From assembly GCA_003336485.1 (NCBI GenBank), contig QENH01000200.1:7510-71509 (forward strand): a DNA stretch of 64,000 nt. Reading direction: 5' to 3'. The position numbers and the translations under genes were made by a program. The DNA is from Candidatus Methanophagales archaeon (GTDB lineage Archaea > Halobacteriota > Syntropharchaeia > Alkanophagales > Methanospirareceae). Under the pieces are notes generated by a model. It saw only the letters and a list, made by a program, of their open reading frames with translations. It ran no database searches and was not told the DNA's origin. Shown piece after piece: positions 8,271 to 61,530 of this stretch; within the stretch, counting starts at the first letter, position 1, and each line of letters begins with the position of its first letter.

Positions 8271-8831
8271 GTGAAAATAAGAGTGGGAATAACCGGGAAG
8301 CCGAAGATAGGGAAGTCAACGATTATAAAAGAAGAGATACAGCGATTGAAAGCGGAAGGGATTGCTGTGGGCGGCATGCTTACATCGGACATCCATAAAA
8401 GCGGCAGGCGAGTAGGTTTCTCGATAGAGGACATAAACTCCGGTGTCATGGGCATTCTGGCACATGTGCACCAGGGAGGTCCCAAAGTGGGTAAATATGG
8501 AGTAAACATAATTGATTTAGATTCCATCGGTGCAAACTCGATAAAAGATGCGGTTGCAAGTCTGGATATAGCAGTGATCTTCGTAGATGAAATAGGACCT
8601 ATGGAACTGAAGTCAATGCGTTTCATAACTGCGGTGGAAGAGGCGATAAAAAGTGATAAACATCTCATTGTCTCTGTGCATCAGAAGTCGGAGCACGAAC
8701 TGGTAAGGCGGATAAAAGACGATTTCGAGATAATTGCTGTTACGGAAGAGAACAGGGCTGAGATTGCTATGATCTTAAGTGAAAAAGTGTTTGGCTGTAA
8801 TGATTCAGCACAAGAAACGGTATATTTTTGA
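8271..8831 (+). CDS. Nucleoside-triphosphatase, THEP1/MJ1559 family
   Basis: P-loop GITGKPKIGKST and a size of 186 aa, typical of archaeal NTPase THEP1. Confidence 0.7.
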   Translation: MKIRVGITGKPKIGKSTIIKEEIQRLKAEGIAVGGMLTSDIHKSGRRVGFSIEDINSGVMGILAHVHQGGPKVGKYGVNIIDLDSIGANSIKDAVASLDIAVIFVDEIGPMELKSMRFITAVEEAIKSDKHLIVSVHQKSEHELVRRIKDDFEIIAVTEENRAEIAMILSEKVFGCNDSAQETVYF

Positions 8832-9607: not shown

Positions 9608-9804
9608 GTATAAGTCTGGATTTTATAGAATCATGTGAGAACCCGGGTATGTGTGGTCCATGGTGCCTCTTCCCGCTTACAATCATCCTGTTCGTGGCTA
9701 TAGTGGTTATACTGGGATTTGCGGAACGGCGTATAGTTGATTGGTATACTATTATACAAATTAAGAAACGCCTGGAAGAGAATGAAGTTCAACAATTTGA
9801 TTAG
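9604..9804 (+). CDS. Small hydrophobic protein, possibly spurious
   Basis: 66 aa with one predicted TM (LFPLTIILFVAIVVILGF). The start overlaps the upstream stop in an ATGA arrangement. Confidence 0.25.
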   Translation: MSISLDFIESCENPGMCGPWCLFPLTIILFVAIVVILGFAERRIVDWYTIIQIKKRLEENEVQQFD

Positions 9805-10076
9805 ATATATTCCCATTTTTTTCGTTACTAAAAGCGAGCAGAAATCTATAGTGATATCGTAGAGGTATAACGTTGCTTATGTATTTGTGCAGTATCCCCG
9901 GGATATTTACAAATTCAAAGCTATGGTTCGGGCTATCGGATTCCTCTCCGTTTTGGAAAAATCAAGACGATTGCGATAACAAATATTATTTTATATCTTG
10001 TGGGGGCGTACATATATATATCCTATGTCGGCTTATATCAAACAATCTCATTAAGATGAAAAGAGGCGAATAAGAA

Positions 10077-11366
10077 ATGAACGACAATTCTAGCACCGTC
10101 AAGTGGGAAAAGAAGGAATTAGAGAAAATTTCTTTGGCTGAAGGAGTTAACGTGGAAAAATTGGAACAACTCCTTGGAGCAGGTCAAGTGGTAATCCCAA
10201 AAAACGCAAAGAGGGCAGAGAAGGGAGACATAACGCTAAAAGCTATTGGCGCTGGGATGAGTATGAAAGTGAACGTTAACGTAGGTACGTCAACGGATTA
10301 TGTTAGCGTCGAGGAAGAAGTAAGAAAGGCAAAGGTAGCGGTAGAATACGGCGCGGATGCCATAATGGACCTCTCCACTGGTGGAAACCTCGCTGCAACC
10401 AGGAGAGCGATTTTGAAAGAGGTAGATGTGCCAGTAGGGACGGTCCCGATATACCAGGCGGCTTTAGAGAAGGCTGATGAACGGGCAGTAGTGGACATGA
10501 GTTCCGATGACTTGTTCAATGCGGTAAGGACCCATGCAAAAGACGGAATAGATTTTGTCACCATTCATGCCGGTGTCAATCAGAATTCGTTGGCACGATT
10601 GAAACTTAGCGGGCGCATATTAGATGTTGTCAGTCGCGGTGGCGCGTTCCTCGTTGCTTGGATGATACATAACGAGCGTGAGAATCCATTTTACGCCGAA
10701 TATGATTACCTGTTGGAAATAGCGAACGAGTATGATTTAACGCTCAGTTTGGGCGATGGTATGCGTCCAGGTTGCGTTTCCGATGCTTCCGACCGTGCCA
10801 AATTTGCAGAAGCTATTACACTTGGCGAACTCGTGAAACGAGCTCGTGAAGAAGGTGTACAGGCAATGGTCGAAGGCCCGGGACATGTGCCATTAGACGA
10901 AATAGAAGCATCTGTAAAGATAATAAAGCATGTAACTGATTTTGCACCGCTTTACCTCTTAGGGCCTCTTGTTACTGACATCGCACCCGGATACGACCAT
11001 TTCGTGAGTGCGATCGGTGGTGCGGTTGCGGGGATGTACGGTGCGGACTTCCTATGTATGGTTTCGCCATCAGAGCATTTGGCGTTGCCATCAGTGGACG
11101 ACATAAAGGAAGGCACGATCGTAACGAAGATAGCTGCGCATGTCGCAGACCTTGTAAGAGAGGGGCAACGAGAAAAGGCGAGACAATTAGATGCTGAGAT
11201 GGCTCATGCAAGGAAAGGCCTCGATTGGAAAAGGCAATTTGAGCTCGCGATGAACCCTGAGGAAGCGATGAGAATAAGAAATAGCAGACTCTCGAAAAGC
11301 GATGCATGCTCTATCTGTGGCGATCTGTGCGCGATAAAGATGGTGAAGGAGTGTTTGGAGAAATGA
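10077..11366 (+). CDS. thiC: Phosphomethylpyrimidine synthase ThiC
   Basis: 429 aa with a conserved radical-SAM-type C-terminal CxxCxxxxC ([13 protein letters not shown]) and an overall ThiC-like sequence. Confidence 0.9.
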
Positions 11367-11486
11367 TTTTGAGTTTGAGGGACTTAAACCAAGAGAATTA
11401 TATTAATTCCGCATCTTGTTCATTTTATGTGCTCTTAATGTAAGCAAATAGGATCTGTTTCTTCTACTTATGGTCTTTTATATGAC

Positions 11487-11534
11487 CTTGACGAATAGAA
11501 TAATGCAAAAAGATATGAGGTGAAAAAGAAGAAA
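11487..11534 (+). promoter_or_regulatory. Conserved 5' leader/promoter block shared by the three beta-helix paralogs. The other copies are at 14288-14322 and 16057-16107.
   Basis: The block ATGACGAATAGAATAA(A)TG(C/A)AAAAG recurs immediately upstream of each paralog start. Confidence 0.4.
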
Positions 11535-13940
11535 ATGAAAAAACCAATAGCAATTTTATTGATAGCTGCAATATTAACGCTAGGCATAGCTACAAGTGCA
11601 CTGCCATTCTCATTCTCAACTTGCGCAACTACAAATAACCAAGGATCTCCACTACTGGCAACAGCCATGCCAGCACTAGCACAAGGTAGCAATGGCACTC
11701 CTAGCGAAGGCGACGCCAGTAGTATGGAAATTCCCCCGAATGCTGAGGAAAATGAGATAACAACGGGCAAGGAGTACTTAAACACCATACAAATGGACGG
11801 TTCTTCATCAGCTCTTTCACATGATGATACAAAGCTTCCATACAACTCTTCGGGTAACAGACAAAAAGGCAGAGATATGCATACATTAGGGAAAATACCG
11901 AGTGAATCGGAACAGCCAGTAGAAGTATCAAAACCACCATTGAAAGGATCTAAACAGCCAGTAAAAGTATCGAAACCGCCAATTAAAGAATCCAAACAAC
12001 AATTAGTACATAATATAAACACAGGCGAGGACTTCACCACGATCCAAGCAGCAATAGATGATCCTGATACATTGGATGGACATACGATTACGGTTGATCC
12101 GGGAACGTATACGGAGAATGTAGCTGTTTACAAGTCTTTAACTATACACTCAACCACAGGTAATCCATTAGATACGATTGTTCAGACGAATTCTGATGAC
12201 CATGTCGTTAATGTATCTGCGGATTATGTGAACATAAAGGGGTTTACGGTGTCGGTGATAGATGATTGGATGAAGGCGGGAATATATCTCGGAAGCGGAG
12301 TGGATCACTGCACCCTCTCTGATAATAATATGACAGATACTTGGTGGGGCATCTATCTAGATCATTCCAACCACAACTATCTCTCTAACAATAACGCCTG
12401 GTATAACGAGTATGGCATCTCTCTGGATTATTCCAGCAACAACTGTCTCTCTAACAATAACGCCTGGTATAATAACGAGTATGGCATAGGTCTATCTCAT
12501 TCCAGCAACAACTGTCTCTCTAACAATAATATCTCGGATTTTAACTTTTATAGCATCTACCTATTGGAATCTAGCAACAACTCCATCTCTAACAATAATC
12601 TCTGGAATAACGAGGATGGCATATACCTATCTTATTCCAGCGACAACTATATTTCTAACAATAATGGTTGGGCTAACAATGGTTATTTCATTAGGCTGTC
12701 GCATTCCAGCAACAACCATATTTCTAACAATAATGCATGGTCAAACTTCTTGGGTGGTATCCGTTTGTCACATTCCAGCAACAACACGATCTCCAACATT
12801 AATACTTCGAACAACGATTTCTTTGGCATTTGTCTATCTGATTCCGACAACAACGGTCTCTATAACAATAATGTCTCGAACAACGGGGATTATGGTATCT
12901 GCCTCTCTTCCTCGAGTAGCAACACCATCTACAACAACTACTTCAACAACACGAACAACGCCTATGATGATGGAACCAACATCTGGAACATCTCAAAAGA
13001 AAATGGACCAAATATCATTGGTGGTGACTATCTTGGTGGGAACTATTGGAGCGATTACACGGGCATAGATGAAGATGGCGATGGACTTGGAGATACTTTG
13101 CTACCATACAACTCTTCTGGTGAGATCCAAAATGGCGGTGATTTGCGGCCATTAGTTACAGCGTGTTTTACACCGCCGGAGATCACTTCTTCCGCCCCTC
13201 TTTCTCCGGTTAACGATACAATATGCACATGGCGGACATTTAACGTTACGGTAGATCAGACGGTGAACGTGCGCTGGTATTTGAACGATATGTTATTATT
13301 CACGAACCTAAGTGTGCGAAAAGCCGATTGCACACTCCATGCAGAGGTTGTGGGAGAACACAACGTAACAGCAAATGCATCGAATGCAAATGGCTCTGAT
13401 CTGCAGACCTGGATCTGGAATGTGACTGGTTTTACTGCGGAGCCGCCTGAAATAACATACTATGCCCCCAAATCGCCGGTTAACGATACCCGAAATGCAA
13501 CAAGGACATTCAACATCACAATCAATCAATCAGTAAATGTTAGTTGGCAGATAAACGGCACGACAGTTCAGGCCAATGAGGGTCTAACCGAAGCATCATA
13601 CACGAATACAAGTGCGGTCATTGGGACCTGGAACGTTTCTGTGATTGTAAGCAATGCAAATGGGACCGACATGCAGACGTGGATATGGACTGTAACATCA
13701 CCATGTTTCATAGCAACAGCAGCATATGGGACGCCATTGCACGGAGATATAGACGTTTTGAGAGATTTCCGAGACGAATATCTGATGTCGAATCCAACCG
13801 GGAGAGCATTTGTAAAAGTTTATTATAATGCAAGTCCCCCAATTGCTGATTGGATAAGGGCGAATGAAGGATTGGGAACTGCTGTACGGGAAGGTTTTGT
13901 TAAACCATTAGTGTATGTTACGAGGATGTTTGTAGGCTGA
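11535..13940 (+). CDS. Secreted right-handed parallel beta-helix (PbH1/NosD-like) repeat surface protein, paralog 1
   Basis: Signal peptide [22 protein letters not shown] (ORF-track start at 11520 adds a K-rich extension). Sequence features in order:
- K/P-rich 11-aa repeats ([11 protein letters not shown]);
- ~22-aa PbH1 repeats (GIxLxxSSNNxxSNNN);
- NosD-like tail [28 protein letters not shown];
- two ~90-aa Ig-like repeats;
- a conserved C-terminal CFIATAAYG domain. Confidence 0.8.
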
Positions 13941-14322
13941 GCGGGGATATTTTGAACTGAATTCTGTCATCGCGATAACACGTCCCAAAGTTGGCTCTTC
14001 GTCCGTCCAGAACTCCCACATATCTTCATCACACGCCGAGTCATATATTCGCGGTGAATTCTCAGTATTGTCTGTCTCACCCTTATCCCGGTCATTGGTG
14101 AGCCAAGCAGTAGAGGAGAGCAACAATAATTTTTGAAGGGTGTATAGCGCGGTTTATTTCGATTATTCAGCCCTGCTTGTGGAGTCGAAAGAGGTTTCTA
14201 CTTTTGGAGTTATAAGGTCACAACTTGTTTATACGTTATCAACACACCAAAATAACACCTGTTCATTCTACCGAGGGTGTTTTATATCAACATGACGAAT
14301 AGAATAAATGAAAAGGAAAAAA

Positions 14323-15876
14323 ATGAAAAACCCAATAGCAATTTTATTGATAACTGCAATATTAACGCTAGCCATAGCTACAAGTGCACTGCCATTCTCG
14401 GCTTGCGCAACTACAAATAACCAAGATTCTTTGATACGGGCAACAGCCATGCCAGCACTAGCACAAGATAGTAAGGATACTCCCTGCGAAGACAACGCCA
14501 ATAGTATGGGATTTGCCCCGAACGCTGAGGAAAATGAGATAACAACGGGCAAGGAGGGCTTAGACACCATACAAATGGACGGGTCTTCATCAGCTCTTTC
14601 GCATGGCGATACAAAGCTACCATACAACTCTTCTGGCAACATAAAAAATGGCGGAGATCTGCATACATTAGAGAAAAAATCGAGTGGATCGAAACCGCCA
14701 GTGAAAGTATCGAAACAGCCGGTGAAAATATCGAAACCACCCGTGAAAGTATCTAAACTACTTTTAGTTCATAATAGGGACACCGGCAAGAACTTTGCTA
14801 CGATACAGGCTGCGATTGATGATTCTGATACCGTAGATGGGCATACGATTATGGTTGATCCAGGAACGTATACGGAAAATATAGTTGTTTACAAGTCTCT
14901 AACGATCAGATCAACCACAGGTAATCCGGCGGATACGATTGTCCCGGCTGCGGATTATAGAGCTCATGTCTTTAATGTGACCGCGGATTATGTGACTATA
15001 CGCGGGTTTACGGTATCGGGGGCAAATGATTATGATACACTGCCGGCCGGAATATATCTGGGAAACGGAGTGGATCACTGCAACATCTTAGATAATAATC
15101 TAATTGACAATTGGAGGGGCATCGATATATACTATTCCAACAACAACGGTCTCTCTAACAATAACGCCTGGTATAACGAGTATGGCATCGGTCTATCTCA
15201 TTCTAGCAACAACTGTCTCTCTAACAATAATATCTCGAATTTTAACCATTATAGCATCTACCTATTGGAATCTAGCAACAACTCCATCTCTAACAATAAT
15301 CTCTGGGATAACGAGTATGGCATATATCTGTCTTATTCCAGCAACAACTATATTTCTAACATTAATGGTTGGGCTAACAATTGTCATCTCATTACGCTGT
15401 CACATTCCTGCAACAACCATATTTCTAACATTAATGCATGGTTAAACTTCTATGGGGGTATCAGTTTGTCACATTCCAGCAACAACTCTATCTCAAACAT
15501 TAATACTTCGAACAACGATTTCTTTGGCCTCTATCTATCGGATTCCGACAACAACTGTCTCTATAACAATATTGTCTCGAACAACGGGGATTATGGTATC
15601 TACCTCTCTTCTTCTAGTAGCAACACCATCTACAACAACTATTTTGACAACACGAACAATGCTTGGGATGACGGAAGCAACATCTGGAACATCACGCCGA
15701 CCTTAGGCGAGAATATCATTGGCGGTTGCTTGCAGGGAGGTAATTATTGGAGCGATTACACGGGCATAGATGAAGATGGTGATGGACATGGAGATACAAT
15801 GCTACCATACAACTCTCCTGGTGAGATACAAAATGGCGGCGATTTGCGACCATTGGTACCTAGAACGTTTTTATGA
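14323..15876 (+). CDS. Secreted beta-helix repeat surface protein, paralog 2 (lacks the C-terminal domain)
   Basis: It has the same signal peptide and N-terminal region as paralogs 1 and 3, PbH1 repeats and the NosD-like tail, but ends at ...GDLRPLVPRTFL with no Ig-like or CFIATAAYG domain. Confidence 0.7.
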   Translation: MKNPIAILLITAILTLAIATSALPFSACATTNNQDSLIRATAMPALAQDSKDTPCEDNANSMGFAPNAEENEITTGKEGLDTIQMDGSSSALSHGDTKLPYNSSGNIKNGGDLHTLEKKSSGSKPPVKVSKQPVKISKPPVKVSKLLLVHNRDTGKNFATIQAAIDDSDTVDGHTIMVDPGTYTENIVVYKSLTIRSTTGNPADTIVPAADYRAHVFNVTADYVTIRGFTVSGANDYDTLPAGIYLGNGVDHCNILDNNLIDNWRGIDIYYSNNNGLSNNNAWYNEYGIGLSHSSNNCLSNNNISNFNHYSIYLLESSNNSISNNNLWDNEYGIYLSYSSNNYISNINGWANNCHLITLSHSCNNHISNINAWLNFYGGISLSHSSNNSISNINTSNNDFFGLYLSDSDNNCLYNNIVSNNGDYGIYLSSSSSNTIYNNYFDNTNNAWDDGSNIWNITPTLGENIIGGCLQGGNYWSDYTGIDEDGDGHGDTMLPYNSPGEIQNGGDLRPLVPRTFL

Positions 15877-16107
15877 TTGTACGCAATGTTTTGGCTGCAC
15901 AATGAGATTTTTTTATATATATATCAAGCCAAAATGTTCTAGCAAGCAGGTAGCGGCATTTTCCACTTGAAGAGTAAAAAACCCCTATCGTACCCATTTT
16001 ATGAGTCCCTAACACCTATGAATATGACATATTCACCCAACCTATGTCTTTTTATGCAGATATGATGAATAGAACAAATGCAAAAGTATGATGTGGAAAA
16101 GATAAAA

Positions 16108-19100
16108 ATGAAAACCCCAATAGCAATATTATTAATAGCCGCAATATTAACGCTAGCCATAGCTACAAGTGCACTCTCATTCTCGGCTTGCGCAACTACA
16201 AATAACCAAGAATCTTCGACATTGGCAACAGCCATGCCAGCACTAGCACAAGGTAGCAATGGTACCCCTAACGAAGACGACACCAGTAGTAGGGGATTTA
16301 CCCCGGATGCTGTGGCATGTGTCTTAACAAAGGACGTGGTGGCCTTTGATACCGTACAAATGGACGGTTTTGCATCTGCCCTTTCGCATGAAGATACAAC
16401 GCTTCCATACAACTCTTCGGGTAACAGACAAAAAGGCAGAGATATGCATACATCAGGGAAAATACCGAGTGAATCGGAACAGCCAGTAGAAGTATCAAAA
16501 CCACCATTGAAAGGATCTAAACAGCCAGTAAAAGTATCGAAACCGCCAATGAAAGAATCCAAACAACAATTAGTACATAATATAGACACAGGCGAGAACT
16601 TCACCACGATACAAGCTGCGATTGGTGATCCTGATACCGAGAATGGGCATACGATTACGGCTGATCCGGGAACGTATACGGAGAATGTAGTTGTTTACAA
16701 GTCTTTAACTATTCGCTCAACCACAGGAAATCCAGCAGATACGATTGTTCAGGCGGCGGATTCCTATGATCATGTCGTTAATGTGACTGCGGATTCTGTG
16801 ACTATAAGCGGGTTTACGGTGTCGGCGATAGATGGATATGCTGCAGGGATATATCTTGGAAGCGGAGTGGATCACTGCAATATCTCTGATAATAATGTAA
16901 CTGTCACTTATGGGTCGGGTATATATCTAGATTGTTCTAGCAACAACCTTATCTCTAACAATAATGCCTGTGGTAACGGGCCATCTGGCATCGAGCTGTC
17001 TCATTCCAACACCAATACTATCGTTAACAATACTGCAGACTATAATGACGAATATGGAATCCATCTGGATTATTCCAGCAACAACTTCATCTCTAACAAT
17101 AATGCCAGCGGGAATAACGGGCATGGCATCTATCTATCTCATTCCAACAACAACTCTCTTTCTAGCAATAATGTCTCGCAGTGTTGGTATGGCATCTATC
17201 TATCTCATTCCAACAACAACTCTCTTTCTAACAGTAATGTTTGGGGATTCGATGATGATGGCATCAGTCTATATTATTCTAGCAACAATTCGCTCTATAA
17301 CAATAACGTCTGGCTTAGCAGTGGTACGGGCATCCGTCTGTCATCTTCCAGCCACAACTCGCTCTCTAACAATAATGTCTTTAGTAACCTTGCTTTTGGC
17401 ATCGCGCTATATGGATCCAGCAACAACTCTCTTTCTACTAATACCCTAGAAAATAACGATTATGGCATCGAGCTGTCTCATTCCACCTGCAACTCGCTCT
17501 ATAACAATAATGTCTTGAAGAATGATGAGCATGGCATCCACCTCTCTTCTTCAGATAGCAACCTCATCTACAACAACATTTTCAACAACACGAACAACGC
17601 CTATGATGATGGAAGCAACATCTGGAACATCACAAAAGAATATACCCCAAACGGGAACATCATTGGCGGTCCTTACTTAGGGGGGAACAATTGGAGCGAT
17701 TACATGGGCATAGATAAAGATGGCGATGGACTTGGAGATACTTTGATGCCATACAACTCTTCGGGCGACATCCAAAACGGCGGCGATTTGCGGCCATTAG
17801 TGGAACCATCTGAACTACCAGTACATAATACAAACACAGGCGAGAACTTCGCCACGATACAAGCTGCGATTGATGATCCTGATACCGTGAATGGGCATAC
17901 GATTACGGCTGATCCGGGAACGTATATAGAGAATGTAGTTGTTTACAAGTCTTTAACTATGCACTCAACCTCAGGAAATCCATCAGATACGATTGTTCAG
18001 GCGGCGGATTCCTATGATCATGTCGTTAATGTGACTGCGGATTATGTGACTATACGCGGGTTTACGGTGTCGGGGGCATCATATGGATGGGATATAGCGG
18101 GAATATATCTTGGAAGCGGAGTGGATCATTGCACCATCTCTGATAATAATATAACTGACAATGGGTGGGGCATCTATCTGGATCATTCCAGCCACAACCA
18201 TCTCTATAACAATAATGTCCGGGGTAACGTCGGCGTTAATGGCGGCGGAATCAGGCTGTCATATTCCGGCGGCAACACTCTCTCTAACAATAACGTCTTG
18301 AACAACGAGGATGATGGCATCTGGCTATATCATTCCAACAACAACACTCTCTCTAACATTAATGCATCGCATAACTACTTTGGCATCATTCTGTCACATT
18401 GCAGCAACAACTCGCTCTTTAATATTGATGCTTCTAACGCATTCGCAAGCATATGGCTCTCTCAATCCAGCAACAACTCGCTCTTTAACATTAATGCCCG
18501 CCACAGCTCTGGTGACGCCGGCATTGTGCTGTTTCAATCCAGCAACAACTCGCTCTCTAACATTAATGCATCGGATGTCATGGGTTATCCTGGCATACAC
18601 CTCTCATCTTCCAGCAACAACTCGCTCTTTAACATTAATGCCTTTAACAACTTTTTAGGCATCGAGCTGTCAGATTCCAGCAACAACACTCTCTATAACA
18701 ATAATGTCTCGAATAACTATCTGTGGGGCATCGAGCTGTCACATTCCTCCTGCAACTCGCTCTATAACAATAATGTCTCGAACAATTATGATCTTGGCAT
18801 CCGCCTCTCTTCTTCAAACAATAACCGCATCTACAACAACATTTTCAACAACACGAACAACGCCTATGATGATGGAACAAACATCTGGAACATCACAAAA
18901 GAATATACGCCAAACGGGAACATCATTGGCGGTACTTACTTAGGGGGGAACAATTGGAGCGATTACATGGGCATAGATGAAGATGGCGATGGACTTGGAG
19001 ATACTTTGCTGCCATACAACTCTTCGGGCGACATCAAAAATGGCGGCGATTTGCGGCCTTTAGTGGAACCATCTGAACTACCAGTACATAATATAGACAC

Positions 19101-20616
19101 AGGCGAGAACTTCGCCACGATACAAGCTGCGATTGATGATCCTGATACCGTGAATTGGCATACGATTACGGCTGATCCGGGAACGTATACGGAGAATGTA
19201 GTTGTTTACAAGTCTTTAACTATTCGCTCGACCACAGGAAATCCATCAGATACGATTGTTCAGGCGGCGGATTCCTATGATCATGTCGTTAATGTGACTG
19301 CGGATTCTGTGACTATAAGCGGGTTTACGGTGTCGGGGGCACCAAGTTGGGATAGTGCAGGGATATATCTTGGAAGCGGAGTGGATCTTTGCACCATCTC
19401 TGATAATAATATAACTGACAATGGGAGGGGCATCTATCTGGATCATTCTAGCCACAACACTCTCTCTAACAATAATGCCCTGAAGAACTTTTGGTGTGGC
19501 ATCTATCTAGATTATTCCAGCAACAACAAGCTCCTCAACAATACTATCTTTCGAGGCGATTATGGCATCTATCTGGATTATTCCAGCAACAACTTCCTCT
19601 ATAACAATACTGTCGATTGGAGCGGTATGGAAGGCATAATTATGTCACATTGCAGCAACAATTCGCTCTTTAACAATAATGCCTGGGGTGTCAATGGTCC
19701 AGGCATCCATCTATCTTCTTCCAGCAACAACAACAATCTCTCAAACAATAATGCCTGGCATAACCTTGATGGTATCATTCTGTCACATTGCAGCAACAAC
19801 TCGCTCTTTAACAATAACGCCTGGTATAACGAGTATGGCATAGGTCTATATCATACCAACAACAACACTCTCTCAAACATTAATGCATCGCATAACGACT
19901 TTGGCATCTATCTGTATCATTGCAGCAGCAACTCGCTCTTTAACAATAACGCCTTTAACAACTATTTTGGCATCGAGCTGTCACATTCCAGCAACAACTC
20001 TATCTCAAACATTAATACATCGAACAACGATTTCTTTGGCATCTATCTATCTGATTCCGACAACAACTGTCTCTATAACAATATTGTCTTGAAGAATGAT
20101 GAGCATGGCATCCACCTCTCTTCTTCAGATAGCAACCTCATCTACAACAACATTTTCAACAACACGAACAACGCCTATGATGATGGAAGCAACATCTGGA
20201 ACAGCACAAACACCACGGGACCGAACATCATTGGTGGACCTTATATTGGCGGTAACTATTGGTCTGATTATGCAGGTATTGATTCGAATCATGATGGTTT
20301 TGGCGATACGCCTTATAATATACCGCCAGGCGGCATTAGCAAAGATTATTTACCGCTGGTTCCTGTTGAACCATCACCATGTTTCATAGCAACAGCAGCA
20401 TATGGTACGCCATTGCACGATGATATAGACGTTTTGAGAGATTTCCGAGACGAATATCTGATGATGAATCCAACAGGGAGAACATTTGTAAAAGTTTATT
20501 ATACATTGAGTCCACCGGTTGCGGATTTGATAAGGGGAAATGAAGGACTGGGAACTGCTGTACGGGAGGGTTTTGTTAAACCCTTAGTGTATGTTACGAG
20601 GATGTTTGTAGGCTGA
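16108..20616 (+). CDS. Giant secreted beta-helix repeat surface protein, paralog 3 (three tandem NosD-like modules)
   Basis: The same signal peptide is followed by three ~420-aa modules, each starting [22 protein letters not shown] and ending ...[13 protein letters not shown], then the C-terminal CFIATAAYG domain. The ORF-track start at 16078 is an upstream in-frame ATG. Confidence 0.8.
16576..20345 (+). repeat. Three tandem ~1.25 kb coding modules inside paralog 3. They start near 16576, 17824 and 19087, with a period of about 1248-1263 bp.
   Basis: Read directly from the sequence. Module ends are about 95% identical at nucleotide level (for example 17650-17822 vs 18900-19083), while interiors differ in PbH1 repeat content. 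Confidence 0.85.
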
Positions 20617-39366: not shown

Positions 39367-40503
39367 CTACCTTTTTCGTCCTACCAGATATGCTACTGCT
39401 AATAGCCCTGCAATAGCGAATACCATTTCAAACCCTATTGTTTCCCTTGGACTAGGTGTGGCCATTGTCCTGGTTGTCGCAGGTGTAGAAATTAGATCCA
39501 CTTTAACAGGAAGCATTATGCTTTTATATTCCGCAGTTGACTTATCTCCTCCAAAATAATAACAAATATCGCTCTCAACATTGAACACACCAACTTGATT
39601 CGTTTTTATGCCCACCCCGATATGTCTTTCCTTTCCCGGTTCTACGGTATAATTAGCTGTATACATACCTGCTCCAGATTCTATAAATTCTATGGATGTA
39701 ATGCTCATTCCTGATGGGACTTTTAGTATCAGTTGCAAAGTCATCGTTGGCTTTGTTATTAGATTGACCGCAGAAAGAGATAATAGAATATCTTCTCCAA
39801 CAGTGACATCTGTCTTTTCTCCATGGAGATAAACACTTGGTTCTCCGGGTTTGGGAGTTGGTGGCGGGGTCTCAGTTGGTGTTTCTGTTGGCATAGAAGT
39901 GTATGTTGATGCCTGTGTGGACGTAGTTATTGTTGGAGTTGGTATGTAGGAGGGGGTAGGTGTTATAAATGGCGTGGGACTCGGTGCTTGTAAGTGGAAA
40001 GGAGTAATAGTAGGTAAATGTTTTGGTGAAGGAGTTATAGCAGGAGTTGGACTTGGTGAAGGTGTTGGTGAAAGTATTGGTGAAGGTGTTATGGTAGGAG
40101 TTGGACTTAGTGTGGGTGTTGGTGAAGGTGTTGGCGAAGGTGTTGGCGAAGGTGTCAATACCTTATAACTCACGGAGATAGTTTTTGTAGCGGTATCACC
40201 AGCATTATCAGTTGCTTCCACTTTTATTATATTGGTGTTGGGGTTTAACGAAATGGTTTTACTCCAGAAAGATGTGCCTGATGCAAGCTCTCCGTTGACC
40301 AGGACACCCTCAATTACTGCTCCCGGAGAAGTGGGGAATGCTGTACCAGAAACCGTTATGGTACCCGTAATCACTTCTGCCTCATCTTCAGGTGTAGCTA
40401 TTTCCAACAAAGGAGCACTTGCAAGCACGGATGTCAAAGAATATATAAGTAAGAAAATGCTGATAGGTACTATAATGAAACCCCTCAAACCTATCCTTTT
40501 CAT
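39367..40503 (-). CDS. PGF-CTERM-anchored surface protein with a Pro/Thr/Ser-rich linker
   Basis: - Start placed at [19 protein letters not shown] (signal/TM).
- Long TPSPTPSP linker.
- C-terminal [23 protein letters not shown], a PGF-CTERM archaeosortase A sorting signal. Confidence 0.7.
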
Positions 40504-40513
40504 GCCAACCTCT

Positions 40514-42811
40514 TTACTGTTCCAATCTAACAATTGGTATCCAAGTATTATAAACTATTATGCTTAGATATGTTTCGGGACCCGTATCAAATTCACTTTC
40601 TGTTGCAACAATAGTAACTTCCCTTGGCTTTGCGATATTTCCTTCTTCATCATTGGCATGTATTATAAAAGTATATCTACCCTCCTTCTTCGGAACAAAG
40701 CTCACCATATACCTATTTCCTACCTCTTCTTTTAACTCCAATGTGGTCAAGTTTATTTCATACATTGTATCATTGCTTATCTGGTCTATGGCAAAATCAG
40801 GTTCAATCAGGGTTACATATACACGCTCTACCTTCAAATCATCTACTACTACCGCCCATATCTCTATTTCTTCACCCACCATCACAGTCTGATTATCAAT
40901 TGAATCTAAGATAGTTGGAGGGAAATCAAGGGCTCCGAATTGGGATCCTATGTATGTTGACGATGACAAAGAGCCATCTCCAGGATATACTGGTGCGGGA
41001 TGCCCAATTCCATCACCATTGTCATCCAACAACGAAATTTGAGGCGATAATCCTACTTTATCGAGCGTATCAGAATATGCTTTTATCTCAGGCACATTTG
41101 ATGTTTCTTCAAAAGCTTCTTTTATGTTCTTCCCTTTTGCTATCGAGTTGAAGAAATATTTTGAGAATGTAGCGCCTGTTTGCTCTATCAACGAATTCGC
41201 TTTTGCGCCCGTTGATGTTACAATTATCCTGCCAGCCGTTGAAAGATTACAAATGAAACTGCCAGAACTACACGATTCTATCACCACCGTTATCTTATAG
41301 CATCCCGTATCAGCGGACAATTCATCCAGATTAGAATCCAACTCCGAAGAACTCAATGTCTCTCCAAGTCCTTTTAACAGAAGCATATCTTCTTTTCCAT
41401 GACCTATTATGTAAATGAACAATGGGACCTCGGTGCCTACTTTCCCCTCTGCCCATGTGTTTATCGCATACGAAATATTTTCCTTTGATGTTTGCATGTC
41501 TACTCTCTCAAAGTTCATGGGACTGAGATAAAATAGCCTTTCATCAGTGAAGCCGCGCTTCAAGAGTGTGTCATAAGTCATGTTTGCTGTCAGGTCAATG
41601 TAATTCTGCGATAGCCATTCGTCGTTTCTGCCAACGATTATAATTGCATATCCTACTTCAATACGGTATTGTTTTACGGTAAAACACATAGTTTCGCTCT
41701 TTATCGCTTTCCCTCCGATAACACAAGAGGCATTTACGTTCCATTCTCCGACCTCATTTGGCGGAAAAGTAATGGCGTAGGAGCCGCTTAATGTGGTCAT
41801 TACAGGCTGCTCTGCAATTTCACCTGTGGGCGATTTGAATATCATGGTTACTATTGTGCTGGATGCAGGAACTATTTCTCCAGAAACCGTTACGCTTTCT
41901 GATCTGTTCAACATAGCAGGACTTACTGAGATTGTGATATGTGTTGGTGGGGTTGGAGTGGGAGTTGGATATTCGTAAGTTGTGGGGGATGCAACAGGTG
42001 TTGGCGTTTGCTGAGCTGAGGGTGAAGGCGTTAATGTTTGAGAAGGTGAAGGTTCTGGAGTGGGAACCGCTCCTCTTGCCTCCTTCTTATCCACTATAAA
42101 ACCAAAAGCAATACCGCTACCATCAGTTTCGAGCTTAATCTTTAACGTGTCCCCAGTGAACCATTCCGTCCACATATCCGCTTCACTTAAAGGGCCCCAA
42201 CTGTATCCATATGTTGCAAGTTCATTCTTGTCTATATCGAGTATCCGCACATAATCATCTTCCAAGAGTTCTATCTTGGTAAAATGAATCCTCATTTCAG
42301 CTACTCCCGGTTCCGAGATGGTCCAGATGTTTTCATAGTTGTTTGCATACGGATGATAGGTTTCTGCTAAATATGAGGATGTTGGTGCTGATTCTGTCCG
42401 CCTTTCCACTTCATCCACTATAAAACCAAAAGCAATACCGCTACCATCAGTTTCGAGCTTAATCTTTAACGTGTCCCCAGTGAACCATTCCGTCCACATA
42501 TCCGCTTCACTTAAAGGGCCCCAACTGTATCCATATGTTGCAAGTTCATTCTTGTCTATATCGAGTATCCGCACATAATCATCTTCCAAGAGTTCTATCT
42601 TGGTAAAATGAATCCTCATTTCAGCTACTCCCGGTTCCGAGATGGTCCAGATGTTTTCATAGTTGTTTGCATACGGATGATAGGATTCTGCTAAATACGA
42701 AGCTGAAACAGTTTGGATTCCGAGTGGGAAGATTCCGATTGACAAGACACATATCAAAAGGATACTACCTAAAAATATGCCGAGCTTCATGATTTTGCCC
42801 TTTCTCTTCAT
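40514..42811 (-). CDS. Secreted legumain/C13-like cysteine peptidase with two tandem CUB-like domains
   Basis: - Signal peptide.
- Two ~130-aa near-identical CUB-like domains ([18 protein letters not shown]...YVRILD...).
- Peptidase core with His in IIGHG and Cys in VIESCSSG, the C13/caspase-like dyad arrangement. Confidence 0.55.
42091..42694 (-). repeat. Near-perfect tandem duplication of the CUB-like domain coding segment (2 copies of ~324 bp)
   Basis: Read directly from the sequence: 42091-42370 and 42415-42694 are nearly identical. Confidence 0.85.
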
Positions 42812-42870
42812 GCTCTCTTCACACCATATAATAAAAAAAGTGAGGCTATTTTTTTTTTCGCCTCACAAGA
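42812..42870 (-). terminator. Hairpin plus oligo-T terminator-like structure after the stop of the PGF-CTERM gene at 42846-43538
   Basis: On the minus strand the sequence is GTGAGGC-GAAAAAAAAAATA-GCCTCAC followed by TTTTTTTT, and the hairpin spans the stop codon. Archaeal termination typically occurs at oligo-T tracts. Confidence 0.5.
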
Positions 42871-43538
42871 TATGCTACTGCTAATGATCCTGTGACCGCT
42901 AAAACTGCTTCAAATCCGGATATTATCGCTGGCGTTTCAGTTGGTAGTTCCTTTACCGTTATAGGATATGTTAGCGATATTGGATTATAATGGTCTTTGT
43001 TATTCCCTGGATAATATAATCCGCTGAAATGTAAAGTATGCTGACCAATTCTCGCATTCTCATCCGCTTTGATATGTAGCGAGATTGTCCTCACCGTTCC
43101 GGGTGGGATTTCGAAAAGTGGTGCATAAGCAACTCCAGCGGCTGTTGCCCATGCATATTCTTCTGAATAGATATGTATTCCGGAAGGAACACTGACATGC
43201 GCTTCCATATGCAATACCACATCGTTCAACGACGGATTGTCTATATATAACTCAACAATACCATCTTGTTTCTTTTCAATTATATCAATTACTGGCCTTA
43301 AACGAACAGTTGGCCCCACTCTGAATTTCTCTTCCGATGGTTTTGGTGTAGCTGGCGCTGGCGTAATAGTGGAGGTAACCACAGGTATAGTTGTTGGCGT
43401 AGACGTTATTATTGGTGCAGGCGTTAGCGTAACGGGCGTTATTGAGGAGGTATATAGCATTGGATAAACAACAAAGGCAATAAGACTAATTACTGCGATT
43501 ATAACACTTGCTAAAGCTATTTTTTCACCTTTATCCAT
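42846..43538 (-). CDS. PGF-CTERM-anchored surface protein
   Basis: - N-terminal TM/signal anchor.
- Thr/Pro-rich stretch.
- C-terminal SGFEAVLAVTGSLAVAYLVRRKKK, a PGF-CTERM signal. Confidence 0.7.
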   Translation of the reverse strand: MDKGEKIALASVIIAVISLIAFVVYPMLYTSSITPVTLTPAPIITSTPTTIPVVTSTITPAPATPKPSEEKFRVGPTVRLRPVIDIIEKKQDGIVELYIDNPSLNDVVLHMEAHVSVPSGIHIYSEEYAWATAAGVAYAPLFEIPPGTVRTISLHIKADENARIGQHTLHFSGLYYPGNNKDHYNPISLTYPITVKELPTETPAIISGFEAVLAVTGSLAVAYLVRRKKK

Positions 43539-43669
43539 TACGTTTCATCTCCTTTTCATAACCTACTTTCATGGATAGATTTACAAATAAACTTGGGTAT
43601 GATAAATGAATAGCCATCGGGAAAAAAAATCATATTCTTAAAATAGCTAGTGCGGGCTGCTTAAATCAA

Positions 43670-43766
43670 TCATTTCTTTCGTCCTACGAAATATGCTATG
43701 GCTAATAGCTCAGCGATAGCAAATATTACTTCAAATCTCGGCGATTTTTGGTAATAGGGGTGCTAA
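43670..43766 (-). pseudogene. Orphan remnant of a PGF-CTERM gene 3' end
   Basis: Own translation of the minus strand: ...HPYYQKSPRFEVIFAIAELLAIAYFVGRKK*. There is no start codon, and an in-frame stop lies immediately upstream. Confidence 0.5.
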
Positions 43767-43831
43767 AAATGTACAACTTAAAAATAGCACAATACTGTAT
43801 CTCTTCCATTTTTGCTTTTTGACCATAACGG

Positions 43832-57785: not shown

Positions 57786-58499
57786 TCAACCCCAACGTTC
57801 ATGGCTCAACATTGACCGATTCAACTCTTCTTTATATAAACGCCATTGCGGCATAAATTTATCCAGATATGCTATAAAACGATCGCTGTGGTTGCGCACT
57901 AAAAGGTGTATCATCTCGTGTACGATAATGTATTCAAGACAGGTTTCCTGCTTTTTCGCGAGTTCTAGATTTAACCAAATTCGACGACTTGCAAGAGTGC
58001 AAGTGCCCCATTTGGTTTTCATTTTCTTAATACCCCAGTCATCAACTTCCACTCCGATTATCTTTTGCCATTTATCCAATAGTGCAGGTACTTGATCTTT
58101 AAGTTGCTTCCGATACCATTTGGTAAGCACTTTCTCGCGCTGCTCGGTCGTGCTCCCAACCCGAACGTAAAGGTCAATATAGGTTTTATTGCGTATTTCT
58201 ACTTTGGGGCTAGCATTGCAATAAATAACATTTAATATATAGCGCCTGCCGTTGTAATAATGACTTTCTCCGGACACAAATTTACGTGCTGATTGACGTT
58301 CTTGAGCTTCAAATTTCAATTGCTGTTTTCTTATCCACGCCATTTTCGTTATAGCAAAAAGGCTAACAGCATCATCATCTAGTTTCAGTGGTGTAGCAAT
58401 GCGCACCCGGCCGTTGGGCGGATATACACCAAGATGCAGATTCTTTATATCCTTTCTTACCACATCTATTGATAGGTCACCTACAGTAATCCGGTGCAT
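57786..58499 (-). CDS. DUF45/YgjP-like M48-family zinc metallohydrolase (accessory gene often found with type I R-M systems)
   Basis: HEMIHLLVRNH (HExxH), 237 aa, positioned directly downstream of hsdR. Confidence 0.75.
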   Translation of the reverse strand: MHRITVGDLSIDVVRKDIKNLHLGVYPPNGRVRIATPLKLDDDAVSLFAITKMAWIRKQQLKFEAQERQSARKFVSGESHYYNGRRYILNVIYCNASPKVEIRNKTYIDLYVRVGSTTEQREKVLTKWYRKQLKDQVPALLDKWQKIIGVEVDDWGIKKMKTKWGTCTLASRRIWLNLELAKKQETCLEYIIVHEMIHLLVRNHSDRFIAYLDKFMPQWRLYKEELNRSMLSHERWG

Positions 58500-58500
58500 T

Positions 58501-61500
58501 TTAATAGTCCCTCTGATTTTTGACTAACCCAAAAATAAGGTCTACTTCATCATCATCATCTATGTGTTTTCGTATCGCATATTTTACTTCACGCTCCTTT
58601 ATCAAATTGCCACGCCAGCCGTCTTTTTTCGTGTGACTGATTTCCGCATCCAGAGCAATCGTGAGTTCTTCATCATGGCTCAAATTATCGTATAGGGCGC
58701 GTTTGGCATTAGAATCCAACCGTTTAGGATATATAGCAGAATCAGCAGGTTTTTTTACTTTTTTACTTAATTCGACTATTTTGGCCAAATATTCTTTATA
58801 ACTTTTGGCTTCTTCTTTTCGTTCATTTATCAATTCATCCAGAAGCGTTGACATATTCTCGTAATACTTCGGATTGGTAGGCATTTGATCGATTATCAGC
58901 CTGCGCATATTGTTTTCTATTGTTTCCGCCACGGCTTCTTTGTTCCTTGTTATGCCTTTCGGTAATGCGTTTACCGCATCCGCGCCTCGTTCTACGATCA
59001 AATCGATCAGCGTCATGTCATCAAAAGCAGAAATCGTTTTGCTTTCTTCTGCACCTATGTACGTGTCTATCAAATGACGCATAGCAGGCTCGTATGCCTT
59101 CAAGTCAATATAATCACCACTTGCCAGTTTTATTTCGGCTCTTACAGCTTCATAATACGCAACATCTCTTTTTATCTGCTCAATTTCTTCTGGTCTATAA
59201 CCGGCTTTCACCATTTCGTTTGCTATGTCGGCATAGGCTCTGATCAATGCTGCTGTATGCTTATATAATGCGATACGCTTTTGTTCCGTTTCTTTTAATT
59301 CGTTCTTAATTTCCGGGTTGCCACAGAAGTAACGAGTATAAGCCAGAGTATCTTTTGGTGCTGCTACCGGTTCGCACAACGCTTTTATTGCTTCCAGTGC
59401 ATTATCTAATCGTTCCTTGCCCAGTGCCAATCTGTCAGTCAATAAACCTGCTACATCTTCTTGTTCGTACGCATCGAATGCTCCTGAGGTATAATCGTCT
59501 ATTGCCTTTTCAAGGCTTTTGAATAGGTCTTTGTAATCGATGATATAGCCATATTCTTTGTCATCGCCATCTAAACGGTTTACACGGCAGATGGCTTGAA
59601 ACAGCCCATGATCCTGCATACTCTTATCAATGTAGAGATAGGTAGCGGAAGGGGCGTCAAAGCCCGCAAGCAGTTTATCCACAACAATGAGCAATTTCAT
59701 CTGGGCAGGTTCTTCTACAAACTTCTTTTTTACTTCTTCTTCAAACGTCTTTGGATCTTTACCATCCAACATCTTCTGATAAACGTCGTATTTCTTCAGT
59801 TTGTCAGTAGGCGAGTCTTCGCCGGTGCTTTCGCCTTTTTGGTCTCCCATTGAGGGTATGTAAGAGGTGACAATGGCACATTTTTTCAAGCCTGCATTTT
59901 GAAACAGTTCATAATATCTACATGCCTGATAAATACTACCTGAGACCAGCATGGCATTGCCCGCACCGTTTTGCAGCCGGTCTTTTGTTTCTATGTCCAG
60001 TAAAATATCGGCAACAATTTTTTCTAATCGTGATTGTGAGCTGAGGACACGTTTCATGGTGCCCCATTTCTTCTTCAGTTCGATTTTGGCGTAGTCGGTT
60101 AATCCTCTTGTCTTTGCCTCGAACCACTGGTCTATCTTTGCCGGTGAGGTGATATTCTGGTCAACGTTCCGTGCCTCGTATCGCAGATCAAGCACTACCT
60201 CATCTTTTACTGCTTCATCGTATTTGTAGGTGTGGATATATTTGCCAAATACTTCTATGCTTTTCTTCTTATCTTTCTTTAGCAGGGGCGTGCCGGTAAA
60301 ACCGATGAGCAATGCATCAGGCAAAATGAATTTCATGGCTTCGTGCAGCTTACCCGACTGTGTGCGGTGGCACTCATCCACAAATACGTAGATGTCGCCT
60401 TTTGCTCGAAAGTCTCTGGGCAGATTTTTCCGGAGGTCTTCTATATAGCCGTCATAATCAGCCTCTTCTTTATTTGCGAATTTATGGATTAGCGAGCAGA
60501 GCAGCCAGGGCGTTGTCGCATTCAATTTATCAATCAAATCTATTCCGCTTCTGGTGCGGGCAATCTTTTCACTGAGACCCAAAAATACTTTCTCTATCTG
60601 CTTATCCAGATCATCACGGTCGGTGATGATGAGTACCCGGGCATCATTGATATTCTCGCGTATCCATTTGGCAAGCCAGACCATGATCAGGCTTTTGCCG
60701 CTACCCTGGGAGTGCCAGATGATACCGCCTTCGCGTTTGCCTATGCTTGCCTGAGATGTCTTGACTGCAAAGTACTGATTGTGCCGGCAGATCTTTTTGG
60801 TGCCGCGATCGTAGACGATAAAATCGTGTAAGAGCTCCAGAAACCGCTCTTTATTGCATAGCTGTGTAATGTGCCGATCAAGCGGGTTTTCTATGTCGCT
60901 TTCTTCTTTCCATGAGAGCCAATATTTTTCCGGTGTTTCGATAACGCCGTAGCGGATGCCTTCGGTATCGTTGCCTGCCATTATCAATTGAATAGTAGCA
61001 AAAAACGGGCGGATAAAAGTTTGCTTTTGATTGTCCAGATTCTGGCGAATACCTTCGGAAACGGACACGGTGCTGCGTTTTAGTTCCAATACGCCTAAGG
61101 CAATGCCATTGACATATAGCACCACGTCCGGGCGTTTATCGTTTTCGCCTTTTACTGTTACCTCTTCTGCTATGGCGAACTCATTTTCAAGTGGATTTTC
61201 CCAATCTATCAGCTTAACGGTCTGGGTGTTTTCACCTACCTCTTCCTTTACACTTACGCCATAACGCAACAGGGAATATACATCTTTGTTGAGGTCGTGC
61301 AAACTCTTGCTCTGGTTGGTTGCGGCCCTGGTAAGCTCGTAAATGGCTTTGACGATAAGGATCTGGCTATAACCTCTTTTAAGCAGGTACTGGTGTAAAA
61401 TCTTCTTTTCTATATTGCCATTGTTCTCGCGGTCTTCCCAGTTGCCGAGATATTCATAGCCTAAATGTGTTTGGAACAGGTCTACCACTCGGTCCTGTGT

Positions 61501-61530
61501 GATGCGTTCTATTTGTCCTATTGGTGTCAT
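58501..61530 (-). CDS. hsdR: Type I restriction enzyme R subunit HsdR
   Basis: 1009 aa with an N-terminal nuclease-domain region, the SF2 helicase motif I (HSQGSGKS) and DEAH-like motif II (VFVDECHRTQ), plus C-terminal helical domains. Confidence 0.9.
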   Translation of the reverse strand: MTPIGQIERITQDRVVDLFQTHLGYEYLGNWEDRENNGNIEKKILHQYLLKRGYSQILIVKAIYELTRAATNQSKSLHDLNKDVYSLLRYGVSVKEEVGENTQTVKLIDWENPLENEFAIAEEVTVKGENDKRPDVVLYVNGIALGVLELKRSTVSVSEGIRQNLDNQKQTFIRPFFATIQLIMAGNDTEGIRYGVIETPEKYWLSWKEESDIENPLDRHITQLCNKERFLELLHDFIVYDRGTKKICRHNQYFAVKTSQASIGKREGGIIWHSQGSGKSLIMVWLAKWIRENINDARVLIITDRDDLDKQIEKVFLGLSEKIARTRSGIDLIDKLNATTPWLLCSLIHKFANKEEADYDGYIEDLRKNLPRDFRAKGDIYVFVDECHRTQSGKLHEAMKFILPDALLIGFTGTPLLKKDKKKSIEVFGKYIHTYKYDEAVKDEVVLDLRYEARNVDQNITSPAKIDQWFEAKTRGLTDYAKIELKKKWGTMKRVLSSQSRLEKIVADILLDIETKDRLQNGAGNAMLVSGSIYQACRYYELFQNAGLKKCAIVTSYIPSMGDQKGESTGEDSPTDKLKKYDVYQKMLDGKDPKTFEEEVKKKFVEEPAQMKLLIVVDKLLAGFDAPSATYLYIDKSMQDHGLFQAICRVNRLDGDDKEYGYIIDYKDLFKSLEKAIDDYTSGAFDAYEQEDVAGLLTDRLALGKERLDNALEAIKALCEPVAAPKDTLAYTRYFCGNPEIKNELKETEQKRIALYKHTAALIRAYADIANEMVKAGYRPEEIEQIKRDVAYYEAVRAEIKLASGDYIDLKAYEPAMRHLIDTYIGAEESKTISAFDDMTLIDLIVERGADAVNALPKGITRNKEAVAETIENNMRRLIIDQMPTNPKYYENMSTLLDELINERKEEAKSYKEYLAKIVELSKKVKKPADSAIYPKRLDSNAKRALYDNLSHDEELTIALDAEISHTKKDGWRGNLIKEREVKYAIRKHIDDDDEVDLIFGLVKNQRDY

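Follow-up and report, generated by a model that had tools for sequence, protein, structure and literature searches.

The legumains are cysteine peptidases of family C13 in clan CD, and members such as the human enzyme (4AW9) and OaAEP1 (5H0I) carry a His-Gly ... (Ala/Ser)-Cys dyad that follows hydrophobic strands. Their catalytic triad is said to consist of Cys, His and Asn, the third residue being Asn42, and the S1 pocket is reportedly zwitterionic and specific for Asn/Asp, with Arg44, His45, Glu187 and Asp231 as its residues. Family C13 also includes the glycosylphosphatidylinositol (GPI) transamidase PIGK/GPI8, as well as prokaryotic proteins that are annotated as 'C13 family peptidase' through Pfam and PGAP (the Prokaryotic Genome Annotation Pipeline). 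Most of the latter run to 1-7 thousand residues, often with an active and a degenerate C13 domain in tandem. A different described system is that of the PGF-CTERM proteins, the substrates of archaeosortase A (ArtA), which end in an xGF motif, a hydrophobic helix and a basic tail; an example is the S-layer glycoprotein of Haloferax volcanii (Haft 2012; PMC7157517). Here we describe a locus, within a stretch of 64,000 nucleotides from a Candidatus Methanophagales archaeon (contig QENH01000200.1; the whole stretch is hereafter called the window), in which the gene for a putatively secreted C13-like peptidase lies between the genes for two PGF-CTERM surface proteins.

Three open reading frames (ORFs) on the minus strand, of 388, 765 and 230 codons, lie within positions 39367-43538 of the window and encode the following proteins.

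39367..40503, minus strand: large ('L-type') PGF-CTERM surface protein, 378 residues from its ATG (ORF; Pfam)
40514..42811, minus strand: C13-like (legumain-like, clan CD) cysteine peptidase, multidomain, 765 residues, putatively secreted (ORF; Pfam; RCV62816.1)
42846..43538, minus strand: small ('S-type') PGF-CTERM surface protein, 230 residues (ORF; Pfam PGF-CTERM; RCV62817.1)

The 388-residue version of the large protein begins at a TTG at 40533 (ORF 39367-40533, minus strand). Judging from the sequence, the start is most likely the ATG at 40503 (MKRIGL..., as in the relative L002), and the large gene and the C13 gene therefore do not overlap. With this start the gap between them is about 10 nucleotides, and 34 nucleotides separate the 230-residue gene from the 765-residue gene. 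Because the gaps are tiny and the strand is shared, the layout of the three genes looks like an operon. The 765-residue protein is identical to GenBank RCV62816.1, 'Peptidase C13 family protein [Methanophagales archaeon]', and the 230-residue protein is 100% identical to RCV62817.1, 'hypothetical protein C5S53_17190', from a Methanophagales archaeon. An initial annotation of this DNA had listed the ORFs, their tails and the motifs IIGHG and VIESCSSG, all of which were found where it placed them.

The same annotation assigned the central protein to clan CD, family C13, and proposed a structure prediction as a check on the caspase/legumain fold; both the profile and the predicted structure bear the assignment out. 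Pfam Peptidase_C13 (PF01650) scores 34.5 bits against a gathering cut-off of 22.8, in a match that spans the His-to-Cys core and covers only profile positions 110-182 of 258. An AlphaFold model of the domain, built from a 29-sequence alignment (A2), has a mean predicted local distance difference test score (pLDDT) of 89.6 and a predicted template modelling score (pTM) of 0.87, and it adopts the clan CD fold, a caspase/hemoglobinase alpha/beta fold with a central six-stranded sheet. In a Foldseek search of the PDB, the model retrieves legumains and plant asparaginyl endopeptidases and ligases at all of ranks 1-23 (E 1e-12 to 2e-10), PIGK at ranks 24 and 26, and no caspase before rank 50. Searched against the sequences in the PDB, the family profile reaches E 1e-10 with legumains and about 1e-7 with GPI transamidase, but only 1e-3 with metacaspases.

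The dyad motifs read LFIYIIGH471G and ITVVIESC514SSG, and the hydrophobic strands that precede them are E95-100 and E138-143 of the model. Profile alignment to legumain relates the following residues, for the first four of which the codons are given.

41399-41401, minus strand: His471, corresponding to legumain His148, the catalytic His
41270-41272, minus strand: Cys514, corresponding to legumain Cys189, the catalytic Cys
41624-41626, minus strand: Asn396, corresponding to legumain Asn42, the third catalytic residue
41276-41278, minus strand: Glu512, corresponding to legumain Glu187, in the S1 pocket
Tyr404, at the position of legumain Arg44 in the S1 pocket, not conserved
Ile405, at the position of legumain His45 in the S1 pocket, not conserved
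Ser515, at the position of legumain Glu190, not conserved

On these sequence grounds, the domain is legumain-like in its fold and catalytic machinery, without the features that confer Asn specificity and zymogen control in legumain. The dyad and a predicted secretion are shared with legumain, whereas sequence identity is only 13-19%, Ig-like domains flank the catalytic domain and CUB repeats are found N-terminal to it. The legumain stabilization and activity modulation (LSAM) prodomain is absent after the catalytic domain, where an Ig-like beta domain and a 28-residue stump stand instead. In the S1 pocket, an equivalent of Glu187 is present and those of Arg44 and His45 are absent, while no window residue was assigned to Asp231. 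Asn-specific legumain activity was considered and rejected because the S1 residues Arg44, His45 and Glu190 are not conserved. The preference at P1 is probably for a residue other than asparagine, and an acidic S1 residue without Arg44/His45 hints, by analogy with metacaspases, at a basic P1.

Conservation of the two catalytic residues in homologs, on which the initial annotation had made its C13 call depend, agrees with that call. Among close homologs His471 is invariant and Cys514 is kept in 9 of 10. The family as a whole is large: an exhaustive phmmer search, counted in cluster representatives, gave 3032 at E<=1e-3 and 86 at E<=1e-30, against only 7 matches when homologs of the isolated catalytic domain were sought with a word index. 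In the best 161 proteins, which contain 293 domain copies, both His and Cys are found in 146 copies, and most of the proteins retain one intact copy. A typical two-domain relative harbors one His/Cys copy, mostly the first, together with one degenerate copy, and single-domain relatives have both residues in 26 cases out of 36. Such pairing of intact and degenerate copies is as would be expected for a real enzyme with pseudo-enzyme partners. The residue two positions before the Cys, Glu512 in the window protein, is acidic (Asp or Glu) in 285 of 292 copies. Asn396 is nearly invariant in the close subfamily, yet it falls outside the positions conserved at more than 60% in the wider family.

Conservation also extends to two further parts of the domain. 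Arg528 (GRIIVTS, at the start of a beta-strand; 41228-41230) is present in 284 of 291 copies, which makes it better conserved than either catalytic residue, and is retained even in degenerate ones; its role is probably structural. A loop at the end of the catalytic domain, residues 590-603 (41003-41044), is highly conserved throughout the family at Gln591, Asp596, Gly599 and Gly601, and its sequence resembles a calcium-binding loop. Several clan CD enzymes need Ca2+.

Most relatives of the C13 protein are giant and also contain NHL propellers, NosD beta-helices or dockerins; in several of them there is more than one C13-like domain. One is MDM8561751.1, a 'C13 family peptidase [Ca. Marithioploca araucensis]' from a sulfur bacterium. 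The window protein shares its domain family with these prokaryotic proteins but differs from most of them in having a single C13 domain joined to CUB repeats, and in being set inside a conserved PGF-CTERM gene pair. When 185,579 GTDB species genomes were scanned with two peptide patterns, no close relative came up: none of 61 pattern matches to a protein alignment (A1) proved to be one. A metagenome contig scan with the same alignment found only 2 loci.

Both flanking proteins end like PGF-CTERM substrates, with an xGF motif, a hydrophobic helix and a basic tail, preceded by a Thr/Pro-rich linker. N-terminal secretion signals are seen in both by inspection, and one reads MDKGEKIALASVIIAVISLIAFVVYPML. 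The small protein opens with a hydrophobic segment, either a signal or an anchor, and continues through a Pro/Thr linker into an Ig-like beta-sandwich of about 125 residues that we call 'VPSG', after which come SGF, a hydrophobic helix and RRKKK. In the large protein, a signal peptide precedes a Glucodextran_B-like Ig domain (Pfam 37.7 bits vs 27), which is followed by a Pro/Thr/Ser linker of about 105 residues, a 'VPSG' Ig-like domain, and finally IGF, a hydrophobic helix and GRKR. The C-terminal signals are located as follows.

42846..42917, minus strand: PGF-CTERM signal of the 230-residue protein, IISGFEAVLAVTGSLAVAYLVRRKKK, with Pro replaced by Ser
39367..39438, minus strand: PGF-CTERM signal of the large protein, with Pro replaced by Ile

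These tails had been described as canonical apart from the replaced Pro. Pfam PF18204 (PGF-CTERM; cut-off 18.8) agrees, scoring the large tail at 29.8 and the small tail at 25.6 bits, but under NCBIfam TIGR04126 (cut-off 24.5) they fall short, at 18.8 and 15.4 bits. Orthologs of these proteins have PGF where the window has IGF and SGF: IIPGFEAVLAV in L001 and L002, ETPGFELIF in L084 and PSPGFGSAF in L004. The loss of Pro, together with the low TIGR04126 scores, makes ArtA processing of the two window copies uncertain. No ArtA was noticed among the window proteins scanned, a scan that covered part of the window ORFs, and one ANME-1 (anaerobic methanotrophic archaea, group 1) metagenome has been reported to contain PGF-CTERM domains without archaeosortase A (PMC5244752). 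The linkers had also been read as O- and N-glycosylated stalks. The Pro/Thr/Ser linkers are indeed present, but the N-glycosylated part of the claim is not supported, as the linkers are free of N-X-S/T sequons and the whole flanking proteins hold 1 and 0.

An AlphaFold2 model of the small protein (pLDDT 86.7) consists of a beta-sandwich and a terminal helix. A fold search with the VPSG domain gave only generic Ig-like matches (complement MG domains, TRAP-alpha/beta, PapD-like), for which reason any specific functional reading of it was rejected, and neither Pfam nor NCBIfam has a family for the small protein or the VPSG domain.

The arrangement of these genes in other archaea provides the main new point of this analysis. 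'Small' and 'large' represent two separate ortholog groups that are present in the same genomes. Orthologs of the small protein in Methanosarcina, Methanoperedens and other Methanosarcinales are 46-52% identical, and the C-terminal half of the large protein matches Methanosarcina L088_413, Methanoperedens L090_412 and L093_360 at 41-49% (blastp) or 50-51% (tblastn). The large protein is also 67% identical to L084_378, which adjoins a C13 ortholog. Small PGF-CTERM proteins such as P0224, 'PGF-CTERM sorting domain-containing protein [Methanosarcina]', and P0268 (ANME2D_01860) have the same architecture as the 230-residue window protein, and these Methanosarcina and Methanoperedens genes are often followed by an ortholog of the large one, with no C13 gene between or beside them. 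The gene orders compared, including those around a JAB protein and a winged helix-turn-helix (wHTH) protein, are these.

L088, Methanosarcina (8001-10204): small and large adjacent, no C13
L093, Methanosarcinales genome (6001-8004): small and large adjacent, no C13
L090, Methanoperedens (8001-12050): small, JAMM-type JAB, wHTH, HepT/MNT toxin-antitoxin pair, large; no C13
L003, ANME-1 contig (3037-6442, small-to-large module): protein A, C13 (55%), small, JAB, wHTH, large
Window and L001/L002, ANME-1: small, C13 (100% / 97%), large
L084, metagenome contig: protein A, C13 (80%), large
L004 and L005, metagenome contigs: wHTH, small transmembrane protein, protein A, C13 (54%), large

Since small and large lie adjacent without a peptidase in two Methanosarcinales genomes, gene order identifies them as an older conserved pair, and the C13 gene as an ANME-1 lineage-specific insertion that has stayed with the pair. 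The C13 gene stands directly upstream of the large Glucodextran_B/VPSG/PGF-CTERM gene in the window, L001/L002, L084 and L004/L005, and in L003 the small gene follows it.

Other genes accompany the three in some loci. The JAB protein, with a JAMM motif (HTHPxxxxxxSDED), and the BlaI/TrmB-like wHTH protein lie between small and large in some lineages and are absent from the window. Protein A is a secreted protein of 250-390 residues that is encoded just upstream of C13 in four loci (L003:293-1129, L004:744-1517, L005:976-1713, L084:265-1437). It carries the motifs FP(E/S)DEAGISAY...DGW(V/I)(V/M)AYY, and the end of its gene overlaps the C13 start in at least 2 loci. It has no Pfam or NCBIfam family match and was absent by tblastn from the window and L001/L002; it could be a cognate inhibitor, a chaperone or a substrate of the peptidase.

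Occurrence of C13 peptidases in Archaea is in itself not new, as they are already listed in MEROPS-based reviews (PMC4357240) and their homologs have been noted in the literature (PMC6461988). The suggestion of the initial annotation that the arrangement had not been described holds in part: no paper describing a C13 gene between PGF-CTERM genes, or prokaryotic legumains, was found in the literature searched, but the protein has been deposited as a C13 peptidase and its family extends to around 3000 clusters. C13 (legumain-family) peptidases of prokaryotes appear not to have been characterized so far. The annotation of the window protein predates this analysis, and nothing about the locus is mechanistically surprising.

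The C13 protein is itself a composite, in which the following parts can be distinguished.

42698..42811, minus strand: signal peptide, residues 1-38, cut before SY (inspection)
42089..42697, minus strand: two CUB domains, residues ~39-242 (Pfam CUB; 324-bp tandem repeat, copies 99% identical)
41942-42085, minus strand: Pro/Thr/Ser linker, residues 243-290
41678..41941, minus strand: Ig-like (PKD/filamin-like) domain, residues 291-378 (weak Pfam PKD match; kept in all homologs of alignment A1)
40907..41659, minus strand: clan CD / C13-like catalytic domain, residues 385-635
40601..40906, minus strand: second Ig-like (filamin/Big-like) domain, residues 636-737 (sub-threshold Pfam Filamin, InlK_D3, Big_13 and Y_Y_Y; kept in A1)
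40517..40600, minus strand: 28-residue stump of a C-terminal domain, residues 738-765 (alignment A1 columns 901-1035; L084 ORF)

The two CUB-like domains that had been proposed are both recognized, with Pfam CUB (PF00431) reaching 32.1 bits against a cut-off of 21.4 in two stretches. Proteins homologous to the CUB part also occur in Methanosarcina. The repeats (42089-42697) align to a single or collapsed copy in L001:7979-8458 and L002:529-1008, and the copy number may vary or may have been affected by short-read assembly.

Both ends of the protein have a history of rearrangement. Residues 1-268 (window 42008-42811), which take in the signal peptide, the CUB pair and the beginning of the linker, share 75% identity with P0004 (L095:4087-5784), a protein of 565 residues from the same type of sample that has three CUB repeats and a PGF-CTERM signal, and the signal peptide is 75-80% identical to the N-terminus of that protein. 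The N-termini of P0002 and L084 are unrelated to that of the window protein. Taken together, these observations are most simply accounted for by a recombination event in which the N-terminal module was exchanged and protein A was lost, and sequence comparison indicates a recent swap of this kind between surface-protein genes in the window lineage. At the other end, an in-frame deletion of about 115 residues took the C-terminal domain from the window protein and from P0001, whereas P0002, P0005 and L084 retain it. The domain (YPSIMGIHRGTIIP...CPGTGGH...WIPAIRLE; P0002 residues ~600-727; L084:1450-3606) has no family match, and of it only the terminal WIPxxRLE motif remains in the window protein and P0001. 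Other C13 relatives bear a dockerin where it would stand. A PGF-CTERM signal, a membrane anchor and a dockerin are all missing from the window protein, which has no transmembrane segment beyond the signal peptide. The initial annotation had called the peptidase surface-tethered, a description that its sequence does not support.

A third tail lies upstream of the small gene.

43670..43762, minus strand: PGF-CTERM tail remnant, HPYYQKSPRFEVIFAIAELLAIAYFVGRKK* (translation; three-tail DNA alignment)

It is a headless fragment of 30 codons, preceded by stop codons and with no ORF upstream, and it is closest to a large-type tail (81% to the L001 copy). The three tails were noted at the outset to be alike at the DNA level and to suggest a paralogous family, and this is confirmed: an exact copy of the 20-mer AGATATGCTACTGCTAATAG stands at 39386, and copies with 2 and 3 mismatches stand at 42868 and 43689, respectively, where shuffled sequence gives an expectation of 0, and the two flanking proteins are paralogs with a common domain of about 125 residues (BLASTP 4e-16). 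A fourth match, at 41371 with 3 mismatches, was not taken for a tail, since it falls within the C13 gene and codes for KDMLLLKG on the opposite strand.

We favor, with moderate confidence, an interpretation of this locus as a cell-surface cluster of ANME-1 in which a secreted, probably active, legumain-fold cysteine endopeptidase has been inserted into a conserved PGF-CTERM pair, with the large protein as its likeliest partner. The analysis shows gene content, fold, residue conservation and synteny, and from these we infer activity, location, partner and specificity. The small and large Ig-like proteins would be exported by Sec, each with a PGF-CTERM signal, and would be membrane-proximal; by the Haloferax model, archaeosortase A would cleave both C-terminally and attach lipid. 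A gene for a secreted multidomain C13-like endopeptidase would have entered this pair in the ANME-1 lineage, and in the window sub-lineage recombination with a CUB/PGF-CTERM paralog would have given it a new 5' end, encoding the signal peptide and CUB repeats. The peptidase, which retains His471-Gly ... Ser-Cys514, Asn396 and Glu512, would most likely work as an active enzyme outside the cell. The CUB and Ig-like domains may serve in binding, with the cleavage of extracellular or surface proteins as the outcome. The recurring neighbor, the large PGF-CTERM protein, would be the best candidate partner, either as a docking site or as a substrate. Export of the C13 protein is supported by its N-terminal signal sequence, its 8 N-X-S/T sequons and the presence of AglB in the window.

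A number of observations weigh against this interpretation. The syntenic relatives amount to only 4-5 short metagenome contigs, and the pattern scans of GTDB species genomes gave no close relative. The small/large pair exists, and works, without C13 in Methanosarcina and Methanoperedens, and therefore does not need it. The peptidase has no anchor and has lost its C-terminal domain, and its gene may be drifting. The two CUB repeats, being 99% identical, could be assembly-affected, as L001 and L002 show one or a collapsed copy. The PGF motifs have lost their Pro and stay below the TIGR04126 cut-off, and ArtA is the enzyme reported missing from an ANME-1 metagenome.

The main rival is that the adjacency arose by chance in a recombination-prone island of surface genes and has no functional meaning, the C13 protein being a free, secreted scavenging protease or a general surface-remodelling enzyme. 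We regard this as rather unlikely, though much at the locus speaks for it. The domains are modular, and the same catalytic domain is found in CUB, NosD, NHL and dockerin versions; the C13 protein has had its N-terminus swapped and its C-terminal domain deleted; a tail remnant persists at 43670-43762; at this site the 97% relative has about 5 kb more DNA, with HNH, TPR and transposase-like genes; and the pair occurs without C13 in other genera. Extracellular C13, C11 and C25 peptidases of sediment archaea are, moreover, commonly invoked in protein scavenging (PMC6461988). Against chance adjacency stand the finding that C13 adjoins the small or the large gene in every related locus of sufficient length (L001, L002, L003, L004, L005 and L084) across 54-97% identity, and the tiny intergenic gaps and single strand of an operon-like layout.

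The C13 gene might instead be decaying, or its product non-catalytic, as a binding module or pseudo-enzyme in a surface scaffold. The in-frame deletion in the C-terminal domain fits this, as does the loss of protein A, which four of the related loci encode upstream of C13. Non-catalytic copies are common in the family, where about half of all domain copies have lost one or both of His and Cys. This reading is nevertheless improbable for the window protein, of which the 765-codon ORF is intact, His471, Cys514, Asn396 and Glu512 are all kept, and the catalytic domain matches that of P0001, a protein from another sample, at 99% identity and without frameshifts.

The C13 protein could also be given a transpeptidase or sorting role comparable to that of GPI transamidase (PIGK) or the plant asparaginyl ligases. 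It would then cut the C-terminal signals of the neighboring proteins and link these proteins to one another or to a lipid, in place of archaeosortase A in ANME-1 or alongside it. The match to the legumain/PIGK fold and the reported absence of ArtA make this attractive, as peptide ligases of the same family top the Foldseek list, both neighbors have C-terminal tripartite signals and one ANME-1 metagenome combines PGF-CTERM domains with no archaeosortase A (PMC5244752). It is nonetheless very improbable, because the close subfamily is rare and patchy (0 relatives in the species genomes with the two patterns used, 2 in the metagenome scan) and the gene is modular, partly decayed and without a membrane anchor, which is unexpected for a housekeeping sorting enzyme. 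Furthermore, the same domain family is found mainly in giant bacterial surface proteins, PGF-CTERM proteins are scattered over ANME genomes unlinked to C13, and the absence of ArtA comes from one incomplete metagenome. The resemblance to PIGK is one of fold alone: the window protein has no membrane anchor, no partner subunits are encoded in the neighborhood and its sequence is nearer to the legumains. We would give equally little credence to a dedicated processing enzyme or transpeptidase for the small/large pair, which would cut both proteins at or near their linkers or C-terminal signals so that they are matured, released or cross-linked; if true, this would represent an archaeosortase-independent route of envelope building in ANME-1, an organism reported to be without S-layer domains.

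The ANME-1 archaea cannot be grown in culture, and little is understood of their envelope or of the contacts between their cells. The locus with its inserted endopeptidase is of value as a lead rather than as a discovery. As a compact enzyme with a single C13 domain and two candidate partners, the peptidase could be expressed and would offer a route to the role of the family and to its cleavage residue. The conservation of the small/large pair over Methanosarcinales and ANME flags an uncharacterized envelope module, with a JAMM protease and a wHTH regulator in some lineages.

The surroundings of the cluster are those of an archaeal chromosome. The window encodes AglB, RtcB, SecY and GatB-type proteins and three NosD/beta-helix surface proteins, and its SecY is 95-96% identical to those of ANME-1/Methanophagales metagenome-assembled genomes. 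The genes for the AglB oligosaccharyltransferase, for the NosD/beta-helix proteins, of 806, 522 and 1512 residues, and for a type I restriction R subunit, which adjoins that of a YgjP-like metallopeptidase, lie at 4649-7249, 11520-20616 and 57786-61530. Immediately beyond the small gene, the 97% relative (L001:1795-6190) has about 5 kb between hemL and the small gene with an HNH endonuclease, a transposase-like ORF and a 564-residue TPR-like protein of near-identical repeats, whereas the matching part of the window (43539-43831) has only the PGF-tail remnant, which marks the site as a hot spot of rearrangement.

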